A DNA stretch of 64,000 bases from Candidatus Sungiibacteriota bacterium (GCA_016432465.1 CP066690.1:462823-526822), one strand, 5' to 3'; numbered from the stretch's first letter, positions 34,706-61,279 are shown. Program-made: numbers and translations. Notes: generated by a model from the letters alone, not told the origin.

Positions 34706-34734
34706 TTGACTTTTTATTCTTTTTGGTGTATTAT
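34706..34734 (+). promoter_or_regulatory. sigma70-like promoter (TTGACT-17-TATTAT) upstream of the lipoprotein gene
   Basis: -35 and -10 hexamers with a 17-nt spacer, and a strong SD AAAAGGAGGG before the ATG at 34770. Confidence 0.5.
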
Positions 34735-34769
34735 TATAGTATAAACTAGAACCTAAAAAGGAGGGTGAG

Positions 34770-35012
34770 ATGAAGCGAATCCGAACCCTGATCCTGCTTT
34801 TTGTGTTCGTCCTGCCGCTTCTGGCGGCATGTGCGACTTTCAGGGTGGTGTCGGAATCGGAAACCCCGCATCCCAGAGCGATTGCGGAGTGGTCGGTTCC
34901 CGGCGCCGCACTTTCGGTGGGTAGGGGCTTTGCCTCAACCCCCGGGGTGAGGGGCACCACCCAGGGGTTTGAGTTCAGCGGCGGGAAAGTCAGAGACGTT
35001 TACCGCCGCTAA
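34770..35012 (+). CDS. small lipoprotein
   Basis: 80 aa; signal peptide with lipobox LLAAC; strong SD. Confidence 0.55.
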   Translation: MKRIRTLILLFVFVLPLLAACATFRVVSESETPHPRAIAEWSVPGAALSVGRGFASTPGVRGTTQGFEFSGGKVRDVYRR

Positions 35013-35023
35013 AGGACGTCGTG

Positions 35024-35062
35024 GCCCGGAGCGCAATGCGCGCTTCCGGGCCGCTTTTTTAT
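35024..35062 (+). terminator. rho-independent terminator (GGCCCGGAGCGCAATGCGCGCTTCCGGGCC followed by TTTTTTATTT)
   Basis: Nested GC hairpin plus a T-run immediately after the lipoprotein stop. Confidence 0.6.
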
Positions 35063-38199: not shown

Positions 38200-38583
38200 C
38201 ACGTCCGCGCGGCAAGTTAAGTAGCGGATGAAATATAAAAAATGCCATGGAAAATAAGAAGGCCCGCTTCAGGCTAGAAACCTTGGCGGGCACGAAGAAC
38301 AGAACGAATGATTGCGGTTTCTGTAGCGATCCGCAGATCGAATCGCTACAGGAGGGGTTGCCCCTCGAAAGAACAGTCACCTCTCGCTCGGTGGCCACAA
38401 TCCTACGGATTTAGGCCACGAGGTCATTGAGATGGGTGGCGCACCACCATCGTAATTACAGTATAGCATATCTACAGAATCTGTCAAGCCCCTGCGGTTC
38501 GGGGAAGAAATACAAAAGATGTCATGGGTCATGGGGCGTAGGGATAAAAAAAGAGCCGTATAAACGGCTTAAGATGGGGAAGG

Positions 38584-38778
38584 TTACTTCCAGTACCACC
38601 AGAGACGAAACCCAGCGTTGAGACCAATCAACATGAAAATGTTGTAAATAAGCGGTTGTACGCCCAAGCTATTAAGCATTTTCGATTGCGGTAACGATCC
38701 AGAGCCAAGATCAACCAGAACGCTTAGCAAGATGAAGAGACAGGATAGAAAGACAACCCAAGCTGAGAATTTCTTCAT
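38584..38778 (-). CDS. small hydrophobic two-TM peptide (64 aa)
   Basis: MKKFSAWVVFLSCLFILLSVLV...; SD GGGGGT 6 nt before the ATG; an upstream TTGACA promoter on the minus strand; a downstream hairpin AAGCCGTTTATACGGCTC followed by TTTTTTT on the minus strand. Confidence 0.45.
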   Translation of the reverse strand: MKKFSAWVVFLSCLFILLSVLVDLGSGSLPQSKMLNSLGVQPLIYNIFMLIGLNAGFRLWWYWK

Positions 38779-38995
38779 TGGCTTACCCCCAGGTTAAGGG
38801 ACTAGAACTATGAGTATGATATAATAAGGAACGGGTTTCTGTCAACTCTGTATCAAGAAAAATCCGCATGACATTTTCTGTTGTGGGATGAGTAACAGGG
38901 GTGTCATGGGATGCAGAGGACGAATTTTGGCAAAGAAAAAAAGCGGTTTAGAGTGACGCTCAGCACCTTGATTCAGCGACGCCTTCTGGTTGTGG

Positions 38996-39115
38996 ATTAC
39001 AGAACGATGAACATCATTCCTACCGCCACATTCATCATTCCGATAGGAGTGTTTCCCGCCAGCACCCAGATAAGGCCACTGACGCAGAAGAATAGCCCTG
39101 CAATCGCGGAACCCA
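38996..39115 (-). CDS. 39-aa hydrophobic single-TM peptide (hand-annotated; below the ORF-track cutoff)
   Basis: MGSAIAGLFFCVSGLIWVLAGNTPIGMMNVAVGMMFIVL; perfect SD AAAGGAGG 7 nt before the ATG; a TTGACA-18-TATAAT promoter on the minus strand at about 39150-39185. Confidence 0.45.
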
Positions 39116-39466
39116 TCACAGCACCTCCTTTGATTGGAATACGGATCTAGTTGCATTATAGCATTAAACTGAACACTTTGTCAATGGAAAAAAAGCCGCA
39201 TGACATTTTCTATAATTCGGCAGTATCACAGCTGGGAAAACGGCTTATCCGCCGGAGGCGGACCCGCCTCTGGCGGGAAATAAAGCCTCCTTCGCATCCT
39301 CCTTCGTCATAGACTTCGGATGGACGTAGTAAAGCTACAGAGGGCCGAGGGAAAATCCCCGCCTACGCCAAGGCTTCGGCGGGCAGACCTGCGATTGGTT
39401 ATTGAAAAAGCAAAAGTGTCATGGGTATAGGGGATAAACACCAAAAATGTTTTATGAGGACAAATT

Positions 39467-41558: not shown

Positions 41559-43592
41559 TTACTCTGCTGTCAATTGTTTAATCCGGTCGCGTATTCGCGC
41601 CGCCAGCTCAAAATCCATCTCTCCTGCGGCGCGTTTCATCTCGCGCTCCAGAGATTTTACGATTTCTCTGGTTGGGCCCTTGGGAAGAGGAATCTCTTCT
41701 TCCTTTTTAAGTTCCGCCAAAATTGATTTTCTAATTTCTTTTTTGATTTGTTGAGGGGTAATGCCGTGTTTACGGTTATACTCTTTCTGGGTTTCCCTGC
41801 GGCGGTTGGTTTCGTTTACCGCCGCCTTCATTGAGCCGGTCAAGGTATCCGCATAGAGTATTACTTTCCCGTCAATGTGGCGCGCAGCGCGGCCAATAAT
41901 TTGCAGAAGGGTGGTTTCATTTCGCAGAAATCCTTCTTTGTCAGCATCCAGAATTGCAATAAATGAAACCTCGGGAAGATCAAGTCCCTCCCGTAAAAGA
42001 TTAATTCCCACCAAGACATCGTGTTCTCCTTCACGAAGTTTTTTCAGAATCTCCGGCCGTTCCAGCGTTTTTATTTCCGAATGCAGGTACTCGGCCTTAA
42101 TTCCCGCCTCGGTTAAATATTCGGCAATATCCTCGGCGAGCCTTTTGGTAAGCGCCATAACAAGCGAGCGCTCTTTTTTAGTCACGCGCTTTTTTATTTC
42201 AGCAATTACGTCTTTAATTTGGTGTTTGGTGGGACGAACCTCAATCTGCGGGTCAAGAATTCCGGTCGGCCTTATTAGTTGTTCAACAATGTGCGGACGA
42301 GATTTTTCTATTTCGTACAGAGCCGGAGTTGCCGATACATAGATTAGCTGGCCAACGTTTTTATTAAATTCTTCAAACTTTAGCGGCCGGTTATCCAAAG
42401 CAGAGGGCAGACGAAATCCGTATTTAATGAGCACCTCTTTTCGCGCCCGATCGCCATTATACATTCCGCGGACTTGGGGTACGGTAGCATGCGACTCGTC
42501 AATAAAAGTTAGAAAATCGCTGCCGTGGGCGTAGCGAAAATAGTCAATAAGCGTGTGGGGCGGAGTTCCCGGCTTGCGAAAATCAAGTTGGCGCGAATAG
42601 TTCTCAATTCCGTTTACATAGCCGGTTGAACGGAGCATCTCCATATCAAATTCCGTGCGTTGTTTAAGGCGGGCCGCTTCTCCCGACGCTTCGTTTATAT
42701 CTTTAGATAAGGAAGTCGGGACCCCGACATCGTAAAGCGATCGTCGGGATAAAATTTTTCCTTGCTTTTTTAACTCTGCAAGCCGCCCCTTAAGTTCTCT
42801 TTGGATATTTACAATAGCAAGTTCCAGTTTTTCCTGCGGGGTGACAAAGTGTTTGGCGGGGAAAATCTTGAAAGCTTGTAGTCCGATTGAGCGCCGTTTG
42901 ACGCCAATGATTTTATTTTTTTCTCCGCCCGAGGCGGATCCGCCTTTGGCGGAAAACTCTACGGCAACAATGTCTTCTCCGGAGGGAAGATAAATCTCAA
43001 CCACATTTTCTCTAACGCGAAAGTGGCCCTGGCGGGGGTTAATGGGGTTACGCGCGTACTGAAGCAGTATCAGGTGTTTAATAAGTTCTTTTTGGGAAAG
43101 TTTTTCGCCAACCCTTAATTCCACTGAAATTTTCTGATACTCTTCCGGGTCGCCAATGCCGTAGATGCAGGAAACAGAGGCAACGATGATTACGTCGTTT
43201 CGCGTCAGTAAAGAAGCGGTAGAGGCATGGCGCAGGGCATCTATCATCTCATTGATTTTGGCGTCTTTTTCAATGTAGGTGTCGGTCTGCGGAATATAGG
43301 CCTCGGGCTGGTAGTAGTCATAGTAGGAAACAAAATAATGCACGGCATTTTCCGGAAAAAATTCTTTAAATTCCTGATAAAGTTGGGCGGCAAGGGTTTT
43401 ATTGTGCGATATAACCAGCGTTGGTTTTTGAACTCGCTCAACTACGTTTGCCATCGTGAAGGTTTTTCCGCTGCCCGTGACCCCAAGAAGCGTTTGGTGT
43501 CGCGCGCCCGCACGCAAATTCGCCACCAGTTGATCGGTGGCTTGGGGTTGGTCGCCTGTCGGCCTGAAACTTGACACAAGTCTAAACTTCAT
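41559..43592 (-). CDS. uvrB: excinuclease ABC subunit B
   Basis: 677 aa; Walker A GVTGSGKTFTMANVVE; helicase motifs; C-terminal UVR domain. Confidence 0.9.
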   Translation of the reverse strand: MKFRLVSSFRPTGDQPQATDQLVANLRAGARHQTLLGVTGSGKTFTMANVVERVQKPTLVISHNKTLAAQLYQEFKEFFPENAVHYFVSYYDYYQPEAYIPQTDTYIEKDAKINEMIDALRHASTASLLTRNDVIIVASVSCIYGIGDPEEYQKISVELRVGEKLSQKELIKHLILLQYARNPINPRQGHFRVRENVVEIYLPSGEDIVAVEFSAKGGSASGGEKNKIIGVKRRSIGLQAFKIFPAKHFVTPQEKLELAIVNIQRELKGRLAELKKQGKILSRRSLYDVGVPTSLSKDINEASGEAARLKQRTEFDMEMLRSTGYVNGIENYSRQLDFRKPGTPPHTLIDYFRYAHGSDFLTFIDESHATVPQVRGMYNGDRARKEVLIKYGFRLPSALDNRPLKFEEFNKNVGQLIYVSATPALYEIEKSRPHIVEQLIRPTGILDPQIEVRPTKHQIKDVIAEIKKRVTKKERSLVMALTKRLAEDIAEYLTEAGIKAEYLHSEIKTLERPEILKKLREGEHDVLVGINLLREGLDLPEVSFIAILDADKEGFLRNETTLLQIIGRAARHIDGKVILYADTLTGSMKAAVNETNRRRETQKEYNRKHGITPQQIKKEIRKSILAELKKEEEIPLPKGPTREIVKSLEREMKRAAGEMDFELAARIRDRIKQLTAE

Positions 43593-43629
43593 AATATACT
43601 CACCCTAGTTATTTTATGAGGAGTCAGGG

Positions 43630-43908
43630 GTGCCTAAACCCTTAATGTGGTTTCAATGCATAATTTGTGATGAGGTTTATAAAACAGAAGAAGAAGCGGC
43701 ACATTGCGAGAAACAGGGTCTGTCACCGATAAGATATCCAGTTAACACCGCAGTATTGCTGGTTCATCCCGTCACTCACATTCTGGTGGATGCCCGCGTC
43801 GAACATATTAAAGTCCAACCCCGGTCGCACAAACTCTTTTTTGAACTGGTTGGTGTCCGTGGGTTTAAATTTATAGTAGAGGAACACCTACTTCGTCCTA
43901 AGAACTAG
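43630..43908 (+). CDS. small hypothetical protein with a CxxC...HC putative zinc-binding motif (cassette ORF 1)
   Basis: 92 aa; CIICDEVYKTEEEAAHCEKQG; SD GAGGAG upstream; followed by a terminator hairpin. Confidence 0.45.
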   Translation: MPKPLMWFQCIICDEVYKTEEEAAHCEKQGLSPIRYPVNTAVLLVHPVTHILVDARVEHIKVQPRSHKLFFELVGVRGFKFIVEEHLLRPKN

Positions 43909-43916
43909 TAATATTT

Positions 43917-43988
43917 AGCCGGCACGATACCGGCTTCTTCTTTTTTCAAAAACGAAAACTTGACACTGGTAAAGTTGTTTGATACTCT
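43917..43988 (+). promoter_or_regulatory. terminator-promoter module 1: hairpin AGCCGGCACGATACCGGCT, TTCTTCTTTTTTCAAAAAC, then a TTGACA -35 and a weak -10
   Basis: Compound element seen directly; reiterated at 44255, 44751 and 45215. Confidence 0.45.
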
Positions 43989-44024
43989 TTGATTAGATCA
44001 CGGGTACTAAAAAGGGGTCACTAA

Positions 44025-44213
44025 ATGGAATTTCTGGCGGGCGTCACTAAGGGTGTTTGTCCATATTGCCGCGACAGGCATCCAGTTAGAAGGGCCCAGG
44101 TTATGGGTGGTCATATAGCAGTTATGGATAGTCATAGAGTATCCGATTCTGGCGGTTGGTGCCGCGGTGAAGGGCTTGCGCCGGAATTTCTCTACGGGTT
44201 GCGCTCAGACTGA
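44025..44213 (+). CDS. small hypothetical protein (cassette ORF 2, 62 aa; Cys/His-containing)
   Basis: ATG preceded by AAGGGG; lies between module 1 and module 2. Confidence 0.35.
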   Translation: MEFLAGVTKGVCPYCRDRHPVRRAQVMGGHIAVMDSHRVSDSGGWCRGEGLAPEFLYGLRSD

Positions 44214-44254
44214 CCCAATCTTTTTTATCAATCTCATGCTGGTTGAGCTTGGCT

Positions 44255-44311
44255 CTGCCGGCTTTTTTCTTTTTTCAAAAACTTGACATAGATTCCTTGT
44301 TTGCATAAGAT
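44255..44311 (+). promoter_or_regulatory. terminator-promoter module 2: GCCGGC, TTTTTTCTTTTTTCAAAAAC, then TTGACA-17-TAAGAT
   Basis: Near-identical copy of the module core CTTTTTTCAAAAACTTGACA. Confidence 0.5.
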
Positions 44312-44340
44312 ACGAACGGTAGCCCTGAGGGGGGTATGCT

Positions 44341-44745
44341 ATGACAACAGCACGGCAGATGCGGGAAGTTTCCGATAGGGTGTTGGAGCGGCGTGTCGAG
44401 GAAGATAAACGTGAGGAAAAGAAACGTAGGGAAGAAAAGGATCGCAAAAATGCTGAGTTGAGAAAACTACTAGAACCCGAAGTAGAAAGCTCTTATCGGG
44501 GGGCCCTTGCTAAGATACGGGAGGCCGCCAATAGGGGTGAGCGGTCTTGCGAGCTTAGATGGAGTTGCGGTTTGTATGCTGGAACCCCTGAAGTGAATGC
44601 GGTTTGTGCAGTGATGGTTGCTGAGCGTTTACGGAAAGACGGTTTTGTTGCCACTGTGAAGCAACAGTGTGGAAGCGACGAAGGTGGTGTAGAGATTGTT
44701 CAAAATGCGTCAGATTGCGAGATCGTTCTCTCCATAACGTTCTAA
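44341..44745 (+). CDS. hypothetical protein with a highly charged Arg/Glu/Lys coiled-coil N-terminus (cassette ORF 3)
   Basis: 134 aa; strong SD GAGGGGGG before the ATG; N-terminus EDKREEKKRREEKDRKNAELRKLLE. Confidence 0.45.
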   Translation: MTTARQMREVSDRVLERRVEEDKREEKKRREEKDRKNAELRKLLEPEVESSYRGALAKIREAANRGERSCELRWSCGLYAGTPEVNAVCAVMVAERLRKDGFVATVKQQCGSDEGGVEIVQNASDCEIVLSITF

Positions 44746-44750
44746 TAATG

Positions 44751-44823
44751 GTTGCCGGCCCACGCGCTGGCTTTTTCTTTACCCCAAAAGCTTGACTTTT
44801 TAGTTTGAACTTCATACCATAAT
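44751..44823 (+). promoter_or_regulatory. terminator-promoter module 3: GCCGGCCCACGCGCTGGC hairpin, TTTTTCTTT, then TTGACT -35 and a TACCAT or CATAAT -10
   Basis: Third, more diverged copy of the module. Confidence 0.4.
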
Positions 44824-44848
44824 GAAAGCACCTTTTGGGGGTAAAACC

Positions 44849-45223
44849 GTGAAGAAAACAACGAGGGTCGGCCTTAGTCTCGCGATTGGTTTTTTGCTGG
44901 CAGTACTGGTTGACGTTTTTGTTGGTCCGGCACATCTTTTGTCGTCCATCCCACACGCTAGGTGGTTGGTGTTAGCCCTTTGGTTTCTTTACTCGGTTGC
45001 CCTATGGCTTCTGTTTTTTACAGCAACACCTCCGCGGCCATTCCTACGCGCTTTGAAAAGCCTAGGAGTGGGCGGTTTAGTAATAGGACTTGCGGTTTTA
45101 GCCCTTGTTTTAGGGGGTTATTCAATCAACATTGCTGGCGCAGTTTTTGTTTGGCTTCTTGCTTCTGGCGTTGCTCTGGGCACCCCCATTGTTGATTCTA
45201 ATAATAGGCCATCTGCCGGTTAA
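44849..45223 (+). CDS. four-TM small membrane protein (cassette ORF 4)
   Basis: The GTG at 44849 is preceded by GGGGGT; the ATG at 44822 in the ORF track overlaps the promoter -10, so the GTG is preferred. Hydrophobic helices throughout. Confidence 0.4.
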   Translation: MKKTTRVGLSLAIGFLLAVLVDVFVGPAHLLSSIPHARWLVLALWFLYSVALWLLFFTATPPRPFLRALKSLGVGGLVIGLAVLALVLGGYSINIAGAVFVWLLASGVALGTPIVDSNNRPSAG

Positions 45224-45262
45224 TACCGGCTTTTTCTTTTTGTTGAATAAAGTTACTATAAA
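45215..45262 (+). promoter_or_regulatory. terminator-promoter module 4 (degenerate): GCCGGTTAATACCGGC hairpin, TTTTTCTTTTTG, then TTGAAT...TATAAA, upstream of ruvA
   Basis: The hairpin overlaps the stop of cassette ORF 4. Confidence 0.4.
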
Positions 45263-45268
45263 AGTGCA

Positions 45269-45850
45269 ATGATTTCATTTCTTTCCGGCCAAGTTGAACT
45301 AAAAGGAGAGCGCCTCGTTATAATAAACGTTGGCAATGTTGGTTATCGCGTATTTGCTTCAACAGAAACTCTCAAAAAAATACCAGAAAAAGGAGGGAAT
45401 GTCAAAGTCTGGACGCATCAATACGTGCGGGAAGACGCGCTGGAACTCTATGGTTTTTTACACCTTGCCGAACTTGAACTTTTTGAAATTTTAATTAAAG
45501 TCCCGGGCATTGGACCCAAAACTGCTTTGGGTGTAATGAGTGTTGCGCCGATTGATACGCTGCGAAAAGCAATTGCCTCCGGCGATACGTCGTATCTGAC
45601 TAAAGTTTCCGGCATTGGCCGCAAAACCGCGGAGAAAATTATAATTGAACTTAGGGAAAAAATGGCTGGCCGCGGAGTTTTGGTTGAAGCGCCGGAATTA
45701 AAAGAAGAAGCTGACGCGCTGGAGGCATTGGTGTCTCTGGGATATTCGCAGCGGGAAGCGCGAGAAGCACTGCAGCAGATTCCGCAAGAAGTTTCCAGTG
45801 TTGAAAAACGCGTAAAAGAGGCGCTAAAGAAACTTAGCCGAGCCCAATGA
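45269..45850 (+). CDS. ruvA: Holliday junction DNA helicase subunit RuvA
   Basis: Begins MISFLSGQVELKGERLVIINVGNVGYRVF; HhH motifs (GIGPKTA, GIGRKTAEKI); about 190 aa. Confidence 0.85.
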   Translation: MISFLSGQVELKGERLVIINVGNVGYRVFASTETLKKIPEKGGNVKVWTHQYVREDALELYGFLHLAELELFEILIKVPGIGPKTALGVMSVAPIDTLRKAIASGDTSYLTKVSGIGRKTAEKIIIELREKMAGRGVLVEAPELKEEADALEALVSLGYSQREAREALQQIPQEVSSVEKRVKEALKKLSRAQ

Positions 45851-60741: not shown

Positions 60742-60791
60742 CTTTTACGTAATCACCCCCTCACGATCGTGAGGGGGTGATTACGTAAAAG
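60742..60791. terminator. 50-nt perfect palindrome CTTTTACGTAATCACCCCCTCACGA|TCGTGAGGGGGTGATTACGTAAAAG; bidirectional terminator
   Basis: Perfect 25-bp arms, seen directly between convergent genes. Confidence 0.6.
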
Positions 60792-60866
60792 CTGATTTTA
60801 TGAACGACTGCGCAGGCGGTTGGAAAAATAAATAGCCGGTCGGGTCTTGCCCGAGCCGGCGAGTAT

Positions 60867-61217
60867 CTATGCAAGCCTTTCCACGTGGCCGACAAAGTAT
60901 CCCTGGCTTCCGTAGATCTTATACCAGCCTGATTCCGTAATCCTGAAGAGATGCCGCTCGAGACTTGCTGTAAGCGCTTTTATCTCATCCTCGGTTAGCT
61001 CATCACGCTTCAATCGTTCTACTGCGGCATCCAACATATTGATGTGTATAATCTGTGTTGTGCGGGGGTTGCACACCTTGTCATCGCCGTAACCCTTATC
61101 GGGGACGAAGAACAGAAGGTCATTTGTCGCATGTTTTCCAAGCGCAGTCAATAGACCATTTTGGTGGTTGTCTTTGATCAACGTGACCACGAAGTGGGCC
61201 ATCAGGTCCCTCCGCAT
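60867..61217 (-). CDS. hypothetical protein
   Basis: 116-aa ORF followed on the minus strand by the hairpin GCCGGCTCGGGCAAGACCCGACCGGC and a T-run. Confidence 0.4.
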   Translation of the reverse strand: MRRDLMAHFVVTLIKDNHQNGLLTALGKHATNDLLFFVPDKGYGDDKVCNPRTTQIIHINMLDAAVERLKRDELTEDEIKALTASLERHLFRITESGWYKIYGSQGYFVGHVERLA

Positions 61218-61279
61218 TTCGGGCCGATGTTATTGTACCAAACTGTTCATAAAAAGTCAAGTGTGGAAAAACTAGATTG

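Follow-up and report, generated by a model that had tools for sequence, protein, structure and literature searches.

The interval between the divergent DNA repair genes uvrB and ruvA was analysed in a 64,000-nucleotide stretch of a Candidatus Sungiibacteriota genome (GCA_016432465.1 CP066690.1:462823-526822), referred to throughout as the window. The source is a metagenome-assembled genome from groundwater, belonging to the candidate phyla radiation (CPR)/Patescibacteria, and the window was taken from a 923-kb contig. The uvrB-ruvA interval spans 1,676 bp and is filled by four small open reading frames (ORFs). Each ORF lies between a predicted promoter and a predicted terminator, and the joints between successive ORFs appear to be built from copies of the two ends of the interval. 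Ten independent Logan assemblies (SRR12113383-431) matched the window across the locus at 100 % identity, with zero polymorphism among them, so the array is no assembly artefact. The features of the locus, numbered from the first letter of the window, are as follows.

41559..43592, minus strand: uvrB, the left-flanking core gene (Pfam UvrB, UvrB_inter, UVR and helicase domains); its first eight codons overlap promoter P0
43571..43600, plus strand: predicted promoter P0 of ORF1; TTGACA at 43571-43576, 18-nt spacer, TATACT at 43595-43600; 11 of 12 consensus matches
43630..43908, plus strand: ORF1, 92 amino acids, GTG start, Shine-Dalgarno motif GAGGAG at 43618-43623; NCBI hypothetical protein HYW89_02725
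43917..43946, plus strand: predicted terminator T1; AGCCGG-CACGATA-CCGGCT then TCTTCTTTTTT; -9.6 kcal/mol
43950..43988, plus strand: predicted junction promoter M1; AAACGAAAACTTGACAC, 17-nt spacer, TACTCT; TTGACA at 43960
44025..44213, plus strand: ORF2, 62 amino acids, Shine-Dalgarno motif AAGGGG at 44012-44017; contains a CPYC motif
44238..44275, plus strand: predicted terminator T2; GCTGGTTGAGC-TTG-GCTCTGCCGGC then TTTTTTCTTTTTT; -15.3 kcal/mol, z = -3.3
44276..44311, plus strand: predicted junction promoter M2; CAAAAACTTGACAT, 17-nt spacer, TAAGAT; TTGACA at 44283
44341..44745, plus strand: ORF3, 134 amino acids, Shine-Dalgarno motif GAGGGGGG at 44327-44334; NCBI hypothetical protein HYW89_02730
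44754..44780, plus strand: predicted terminator T3; GCCGGC-CCACGC-GCTGGC then TTTTTCTTT; -10.5 kcal/mol
44792..44820, plus strand: predicted junction promoter M3; TTGACT, 17-nt spacer, TACCAT; includes a putative relic of a uvrB 5' end
44849..45223, plus strand: ORF4, 124 amino acids, GTG start at 44849, Shine-Dalgarno motif GGGGGT at 44837-44842; NCBI hypothetical protein HYW89_02735
45215..45241, plus strand: predicted terminator T4; GCCGG-TTAATA-CCGGC then TTTTTCTTTTT
45257..45850, plus strand: ruvA with its own predicted -10 element, TATAAA at 45257-45262
45269..45850, plus strand: ruvA coding sequence (Pfam RuvA_N and RuvA_C)

The four hairpins (43917-43935, 44238-44262, 44754-44771 and 45215-45230) have fold energies of -9.6 to -15.3 kcal/mol. 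All are of the form GCYGG…CYGGC and run directly into a tail resembling TTTTTCTTT, and the structure expected of an intrinsic terminator, a G+C-rich hairpin followed at once by a U-run, can thus be predicted four times in the interval. A preliminary description of this DNA had reported four recurring hairpin/T-run copies, and these were recovered; the position that it gave for the second (44255) corresponds to the 3' arm of the hairpin at 44238-44262. The promoters with 17-nt spacers that it placed after the first three hairpins were likewise found, at 43960, 44283 and 44792. Its fourth copy, described as a degenerate promoter, did not hold, as only 8 nt separate TTGAAT from TATAAA; this copy appears instead to be a terminator followed by the -10 element of ruvA itself, with no degenerate promoter copy. 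Every unit carries a predicted sigma-70-type promoter of the form TTGAC(A/T)-N17/18-TAnnnT. Promoter P0, the -35 element of which sits inside uvrB codons 6-8, had been overlooked as a fifth promoter; with P0 assigned to ORF1, a promoter and terminator of its own can be predicted for each of the four genes, as had been proposed.

The reiteration of the junction module is far beyond chance. With up to three mismatches allowed, the 16-mer CCGGCTTTTTCTTTTT had 15 matches in the window where 3.3 would be expected, the best of them being the four copies at this locus. Four-fifths (4/5) of the hairpins of the GCYGG..CYGGC type with a T-rich tail in the window fall in this 1.7 kb, and the stems of the ~40 other terminator candidates in the window are unrelated. 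Exact matches to AAACTTGACA number three over the 64 kb, always at the uvrB-ruvA locus. The 20-nt module core has exactly one occurrence, because the first copy has a 5-nt insertion. On present evidence the junction module appears to be a chimera, consisting of the ruvA-side terminator joined to a copy of the uvrB-proximal promoter P0. This chimeric, relic-bearing junction is the point added here beyond the preliminary description.

To place the locus in its clade, relatives were collected by a RuvA search of GTDB species representatives and Joint Genome Institute (JGI) metagenomes, which gave 160 loci (numbered here with the prefix L), the closest having 78 % RuvA identity. Approximately 25 Sungiibacteriota-like relatives retain the divergent uvrB/ruvA pair, with uvrB orthologues at 66-78 % identity and a gap between the start codons of 11-1,406 bp. 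The gap is 11-24 bp in six of them (L008, L020, L021, L088, L089 and L093), 73-115 bp in three and 343-1,406 bp in about seventeen, and the 1,676 bp of the window is the largest of the set. The cargo differs from genome to genome and comprises at least six unrelated kinds, among them two families of small proteins with signal peptides, a regulator resembling PaaX, a protease of the Rce1-like (CPBP) type, a methyltransferase, a zinc-ribbon transmembrane protein and further orphans. No match of ORF1-4 to the cargo of relatives was found by tblastn over the 160 related loci, phmmer or tblastx. A candidate resemblance between ORF1 and the first interval gene of L013, both of which contain CxxC...CE..G, was dropped because neither BLASTP nor phmmer gave an alignment. 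The variable gap, the unrelated cargo and the lack of ORF1-4 matches in relatives refute the alternative that these are conserved core genes. The interval is best described as a clade-wide hypervariable gene-insertion hotspot, of which the interval in the window would be the fullest known state, and the earlier suggestion of a hypervariable accessory locus or cassette array is in agreement with the range of gap lengths and cargo across these relatives. Similar hotspots, without mobile elements and with core genes on both sides, are described for many bacteria, and many of them show recombination at these neighbouring genes (Oliveira et al. 2017, PMC5635113).

Both ends of the interval are recognizable across the clade. 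On the right, a GCCGG-loop-CCGGC hairpin with a T-run lies just before the ruvA promoter in nine of the ~17 filled intervals (the window, L009, L011, L012, L014, L016, L096, L097 and L098), and hairpins of the GCCGG class had three hits in 9.2 kb of intervals versus five in 1.16 Mb outside them. T4 is accordingly placed by us as the likely ancestral right boundary of the interval. On the left, a predicted TTGAC(A/T)-N17-TAnnnT promoter, corresponding to P0, overlaps the first uvrB codons upstream of the first interval gene; at the P0 position L011 has TTGACT-17-TATAAT, and the elements TAGAAT and TATACT are found in L012 and L091, respectively. In the two-gene intervals of L010 and L013, the internal joint is a terminator of the same type followed by AAACTTGAC (or (A)AACTTGAC) or AAGTTTGAC.

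The palindromes also invite a reading in which the GCCGG...CCGGC hairpins act like the attC sites of integrons, as places where a recombinase captures cassettes site-specifically. Such capture would suit heterogeneous small genes that each have a similar imperfect palindrome at the 3' end, and a hairpin class that is strongly enriched at the locus across the clade. We consider it very unlikely, since no integrase, transposase, recombinase or phage gene was detected within ~10 kb of the interval (Pfam on window ORFs), and the hairpins are 16-25 nt long with U-runs, as in intrinsic terminators, versus 57-141 nt for attC. The cassettes, moreover, have predicted promoters of their own, and relics of uvrB are not expected from site-specific insertion.

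Other sequence elements were seen in the intervals of individual relatives. In L011, L013, L098 and L016, three to five copies of ATTCGT(A) lie 40-70 nt 5' of ruvA (in L098, for instance, as ATTCGTATATTCGTACCTATTCGTAATTCGTAGG); the window lacks this motif, and the repeats could be a protein-binding or RNA element. In L009 (8600-9260), a minus-strand PaaX-like gene with a Cas2-like domain lies between two near-identical palindromes of ~45 nt, aaatgttcattatt[tt/tc]aagcggtcgctt[aa/ga]aataatgaacattt. The 105-bp uvrB-ruvA gap of L023 (9900-9990) consists mostly of one long perfect hairpin, CTTCTAACACATTCCTGACGGCCGTCAGGAATGTGTTAGAAG.

Relics of uvrB 5' ends were identified at the junctions. The reverse complement of M3 at 44792-44815 is ATGAAGTTCAAACTAAAAAGTCAA (ATG AAG TTC AAA CTA AAA AGT CAA), which translates as MKFKLKSQ. 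The UvrB N-termini of three relatives are MQFKLKSQYKP (L091), MKFILKSQYKP (L011) and MKFVLKSQYQP (L012), and the resident UvrB begins MKFRLVSSFRP, the other allele type of the clade. When the interval was compared by blastn with all relatives (1.6 Mb), M3 (44792-44816) matched L091 at 92 % (23 of 25 nt, E = 0.015) and, as the second top match, L011 at 84 % over 31 nt. Both matches fall exactly on uvrB start codons and P0, and the likeness extends into the 5' leader, where AGCACCT is found at the same offset. The resident uvrB allele agrees with M3 at 16 of 20 nt, and an indel of 2 nt separates them. Local alignments were then made against 25 uvrB-5'/P0 regions, with shuffled controls. M3 scored 22.5 with L091, 21 with L011 and 19 with L012, for a shuffle maximum of 14 (p < 0.003), and M1 scored 19 with the uvrB-5'/P0 region of L096 (shuffle maximum 15, p < 0.003) compared with 12 for the resident P0. 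Because the relic in M3 matches a uvrB start of the L091/L011 type, we infer that ORF4 once lay directly beside a uvrB of that allele type. A state with a single cassette is still present in L091 and L011, and the remaining units would have entered later, between ORF4 and the current uvrB 5' end.

These results bear on a reading in which the array arose in situ, by tandem duplication of one cassette together with the first uvrB codons, three times over, after which the coding bodies diverged or were replaced. In favour of such duplication, the modules at the junctions are clear paralogues of one another, M1 and M2 each have a 10-11-mer in common with the resident P0 (an identical 11-mer in the case of M1), and the single-cassette relatives offer a plausible starting state. 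This reading is less easily reconciled with the four proteins, which have no pairwise similarity and differ in architecture, or with the allelic affinities of the junctions, as M3 is nearer to the L091, L011 and L012 alleles than to the resident one and M1 is nearer to L096 than to the resident P0. Duplication also cannot explain heterogeneous arrays, as has been argued for Vibrio (PMC5361080). In-situ duplication is therefore regarded by us as fairly unlikely.

The ORFs occupy the space from promoter to terminator in each unit, with leaders of 25-45 nt. For ORF4, the GTG at 44849 was taken as the start because an alternative ATG at 44822 (133 amino acids) lies only 2 nt past the predicted -10 element (44815-44820) and has no Shine-Dalgarno motif. 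Four small ORFs of the sizes previously described are present, and the unusually strong Shine-Dalgarno motifs, earlier noted for all but ORF2, were found for all four: duplex energies, computed with an assumed canonical anti-Shine-Dalgarno sequence, were -8.0 (ORF2) to -12.3 kcal/mol at spacings of 6-8 nt, versus a median of -4.3 kcal/mol for 43 long genes, even with the most favourable start taken for each. Among random 15-mers only 4.5 % are as strong as -8 kcal/mol, and the chance for four random sites is ~4e-6. A codon model trained on 32 long ORFs of the window gave scores per codon of 0.157 for ORF1, 0.158 for ORF3 and 0.114 for ORF4, above 95-98 % of shadow ORFs (2-5 % of which scored as high). 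For reference, 100-codon chunks of real genes had a mean of 0.267 (5th percentile 0.073) and shadow ORFs a mean of -0.087. The best of the six frames was the annotated frame in all four cases.

If the ORFs were not genes, the interval would consist of non-coding spacer or small RNAs between promoters and terminators. The four proteins have no homologues, and a promoter-terminator unit that is probably ORF-less lies in the nearby polA-fpg interval (described below). The codon score of ORF2 (-0.054) is indistinguishable from that of non-coding ORFs, and this ORF, called in the Logan contigs, has no NCBI annotation. A wholly non-coding interval is nonetheless highly improbable given the four strong Shine-Dalgarno sites and the agreement of the reading frames, to which may be added the confident model of ORF3 (predicted local distance difference test, pLDDT, 84), the four hydrophobic segments of ORF4 and a repeat in ORF2 that is in frame. 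No RNA family was found in the interval with Rfam at a permissive threshold, and folding of the ORF2 transcript (z = -1.6) revealed no unusual structure. The repeat in ORF2 is a 21-nt tandem duplication at 44100-44139, GTTATGGGTGGTCATATAG / GTTATGGATAGTCATAGAG, which encodes VMGGHIA / VMDSHRV. Taken together, ORF1, ORF3 and ORF4 are very probably translated; ORF2 is probably translated, its coding status being the least certain of the four.

The predicted products differ in kind. ORF1 has a CxxC and an HC motif (Cys10, Cys13, His25 and Cys26) and ORF2 has Cys12, Cys15, His19 and Cys46; judging by these motifs alone, both look like small putative zinc-binding proteins. ORF3, modelled without an alignment, has a 62-residue helix (55 % charged) followed by a Cys-bearing beta-alpha-beta-beta domain, and ORF4 has four clean hydrophobic segments, which are predicted transmembrane segments. 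The AlphaFold2 model of ORF1 (pLDDT 49) was too poor for use. Family searches of ORF1-4 gave nothing significant in Pfam, PHROGs, PADLOC or NCBIfam, with one PHROG match at E = 0.0047, and sequence searches of the PDB gave no match. Searches of ORF1, ORF3 and ORF4 against 5.8 billion proteins returned self-hits only. With HMMER against 1.84e9 representative proteins, ORF3 had one marginal non-self match, to a 47-residue motif in P0003 (E = 4e-5). P0003 is a protein of 202 amino acids that is internally repeated and shares the motif G[EK]R[SF]CxxRWSCG...PE with ORF3. Foldseek comparison of the ORF3 model with the PDB gave no match at E < 0.5, and comparison with BFVD gave weak matches to small uncharacterised phage proteins (E ~1e-3, template modelling (TM) score 0.4-0.5). 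Nothing meaningful was found in metagenome, viral, phage and plasmid collections (IMG/VR by tblastn; INPHARED and PLSDB as DNA), the two viral matches of ORF2 being 11-15 residues long and not meaningful. Comparison of the interval with the rest of the window by tblastx and blastn identified no source sequence for the ORFs. All four proteins appear to be true orphans and, by inference, lineage-specific accessory proteins.

The preliminary description had also raised the possibility of a toxin/immunity set or a phage-derived module. In its general form this reading holds that the four genes are one functional block, acquired as a phage-derived moron cluster, a toxin/immunity set or an anti-phage defence system. 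Its attractions are the moron-like anatomy of the units (PMC3594210), the weak structural matches of ORF3 to phage proteins, the single PHROG match and the nature of the products, which comprise a membrane protein and small proteins with Cys/His motifs. Neither version found support in the searches: PADLOC gave no match for a toxin/immunity or defence set, nor did Pfam or NCBIfam, and for a phage-derived module there was nothing significant in PHROGs, IMG/VR, INPHARED or PLSDB, with no phage or mobility genes within ~10 kb. The composition of the interval is ordinary (GC 0.464 vs 0.480 for the window), and the relics of different allele types favour stepwise assembly. Acquisition as one block is quite improbable in our assessment.

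We consider it reasonably likely that the locus is a hotspot in which autonomous units have accumulated by serial addition. Each of the four units would be monocistronic and complete, with a promoter, a leader, a strong Shine-Dalgarno motif, a small orphan ORF and an intrinsic terminator. Each terminator would end its own transcript and the next promoter, ~20 nt on, would restart transcription, so that the four genes would be expressed independently and probably strongly. The terminators would insulate the units from one another and shield ruvA from read-through, with ruvA restarting at its own -10 element. Whole units (uvrB 5' stub with P0, gene and terminator) would have been added one after the other at the uvrB side, each addition shifting the older units towards ruvA. 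The likeliest route would be homology-facilitated illegitimate recombination with alleles of this hotspot from donors, in which homology in or beyond uvrB would anchor one end and the other end would be joined illegitimately close to the T-run. Donor alleles are favoured because the relics differ in allele type and the proteins are not related to one another, and simple in-situ duplication appears the less likely of the two routes. Natural competence and homologous recombination have been documented in CPR bacteria (PMC10633639, PMC12455944), and homology-facilitated illegitimate recombination is the explanation given for relic-bearing arrays at Vibrio type VI secretion system (T6SS) loci (PMC5361080).

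Several observations weigh against serial addition and are to be set beside it. Neither an intermediate state of the array nor a donor copy of any ORF was found among the 160 loci, which is attributed to there being no relative above ~78 % RuvA identity, and a displacement model expects array members to match active cassettes elsewhere, which none does. That three illegitimate joins all fall just past a T-run would also have to be accounted for, for example by selection or microhomology. At 24-50 nt the relics are short, some of their sequence is of low complexity, and the score of M2 (13 against the resident P0, p ~0.04) is marginal. The identity ranks of UvrB and RuvA among relatives gave a Spearman coefficient of 0.09 (n = 20), which is uninformative at this divergence. 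The promoters and terminators are consensus predictions from the sequence, the terminator stems are short (6 bp), and the analysis covered 64 kb out of a genome of ~923 kb. The non-coding-like codon score of ORF2 and its missing annotation, given above, count on the same side.

A further reading, which we regard as unlikely, is that the locus is a self-extending expression platform, in which the antisense of the first ~14 uvrB codons has been recopied as a terminator-plus-promoter joint and which acts as a nursery for small genes that are orphans or arise de novo. Speculatively, the K-P-T-G codons of uvrB, antisense GCCGGTTGGTTT, would supply the GCCGG arm and T-run, and codons 1-9 would supply the -35 element, spacer and -10 element. 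The sequence of codons 10-14, from which the arm and T-run would come, is short and of low complexity, and the idea stays speculation. If true, DNA landing or arising behind each copy would be provided with strong, insulated, ready-made expression in a reduced CPR genome.

With respect to the right-hand neighbour, the Shine-Dalgarno duplex energy of ruvA is -0.6 kcal/mol and the distance from the -10 element to the ATG is 6-9 nt (45257-45271 in the window, and in L008, L088 and L021). As no Shine-Dalgarno site lies upstream of ruvA, its mRNA is probably leaderless or nearly so, and the same spacing in relatives suggests that this is common to the clade. In the compact genomes, the ruvA promoter overlaps the 5' end of uvrB. 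The wider surroundings are housekeeping in character, with polA, fpg, holA and rpsT beyond uvrB and, beyond ruvA, a Mur ligase and a gene of the FemAB family.

Units of similar design were identified elsewhere in the window.

34706-35053, plus strand: stand-alone unit; predicted promoter TTGACT-17-TATTAT, strong Shine-Dalgarno motif, lipoprotein-like ORF of 80 amino acids at 34770-35012
38200-39466, minus strand: polA-fpg array of three units, with predicted TTGACA promoters at 39184, 38845 and 38487
~38262-38470, minus strand: apparently ORF-less unit of the polA-fpg array, ~210 nt with several hairpins; TTGACA...TATACT, predicted terminator GCCTGAAGCGGGC then a T-run
60835-61265, minus strand: unit of the same design; predicted promoter TTGACT-17-TACAAT (61260), Shine-Dalgarno motif GGAGG, orphan ORF of 111 amino acids at 61202..60867

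The stand-alone unit ends in a long G+C-rich predicted terminator (35022-35053). The terminator of the 111-amino-acid unit (60860-60835) is GCCGGCTCGGGCAAGACCCGACCGGC, again of the GCCGG...CCGGC type, followed by TATTTATTTTT, and its ORF has no match in Pfam or NCBIfam. Between this unit and a convergent metallo-beta-lactamase-like gene of 443 amino acids there is a perfect palindrome of 44 nt, ttacgtaatcaccccctcacgatcgtgagggggtgattacgtaa (~60752-60795). The polA-fpg interval measures 1,267 bp, versus 590-640 bp in L010 and L016. Two of its units encode membrane peptides of 40 and 64 amino acids, both with a strong Shine-Dalgarno motif; the transcript of the third (~38262-38470) is a candidate small RNA, with no Rfam match even at E = 1. 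A 22-nt junction motif at 38858-38879 recurs at 39190-39211 with 95 % identity, and the fpg-proximal boundary (39418-39438) recurs inside the array at 38528-38548. Accretion by copying of boundaries may thus be a general habit of this genome.

CPR/Patescibacteria have small, packed genomes with many orphan genes of unclear origin, and this locus gives a testable picture of gene gain without mobile elements. In this picture a fixed regulatory frame between two essential repair genes has units swapped in and stacked, which leave behind datable uvrB 5' stubs. If confirmed, the uvrB-ruvA gap would serve as a marker for recombination and gene turnover in Sungiibacteriota populations. The four proteins, one of them an orphan with a confident fold prediction, may have lineage-specific functions, and should these organisms become genetically tractable, the arrangement points to a natural landing pad at which expression would be strong and insulated.

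The anatomy of the units agrees with that of phage morons (HK97 and HK022; Juhala, Hendrix), which have an independent promoter and terminator and separate two genes that adjoin each other in relatives (PMC3594210). As in morons, each unit here is accessory DNA with a predicted promoter and factor-independent terminator of its own, inserted between two genes, uvrB and ruvA, that in six relatives are neighbours 11-24 bp apart. Unlike morons, the units are found on a bacterial chromosome between housekeeping repair genes, with no phage, prophage or viral match, their GC content is not deviant, four of them stand in tandem, and their signals appear to copy the boundary elements of the locus itself, not to be imported. 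The units would thus work like morons and yet appear to lie outside the moron class, since they lack both phage residence and deviant composition.

Similarities are also seen with arrays formed by sequential displacement, such as the T6SS immunity genes of Vibrio cholerae and the orphan modules of Rhs/contact-dependent inhibition (CDI) systems (PMC5361080). Both are heterogeneous arrays beside a conserved anchor gene, the junctions of which keep stubs of that gene (eight uvrB codons in M3 and the L096-like sequence in M1), and in both the proposed process is homologous anchoring with an illegitimate join, by which older units are pushed outward. In the present case, however, the relic is the 5' end of a divergent housekeeping gene, uvrB, and would double as a promoter; no active counterparts are known, which may reflect the sparseness of close relatives, and no toxin/immunity logic is evident. 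Hotspots flanked by core genes (PMC5635113) are similar in their conserved flanks, rapid turnover of content and lack of integrase or transposase, all of which were found here. They differ in that this hotspot is tiny (0-1.7 kb, one to four genes), lies in a reduced CPR genome and reuses and reiterates a fixed promoter/terminator frame. Integron cassette arrays resemble it in that small genes without relation to one another stand in tandem, each with an imperfect palindrome behind it, but no intI or recombinase domain lies within ~10 kb of the present array, which lacks both sites of attC size and a common Pc promoter. What appears distinctive of the uvrB-ruvA array, in comparison with all of these, is a regulatory joint assembled from the boundary elements of the locus itself, in which the 5' stub of a housekeeping gene would serve as the promoter.

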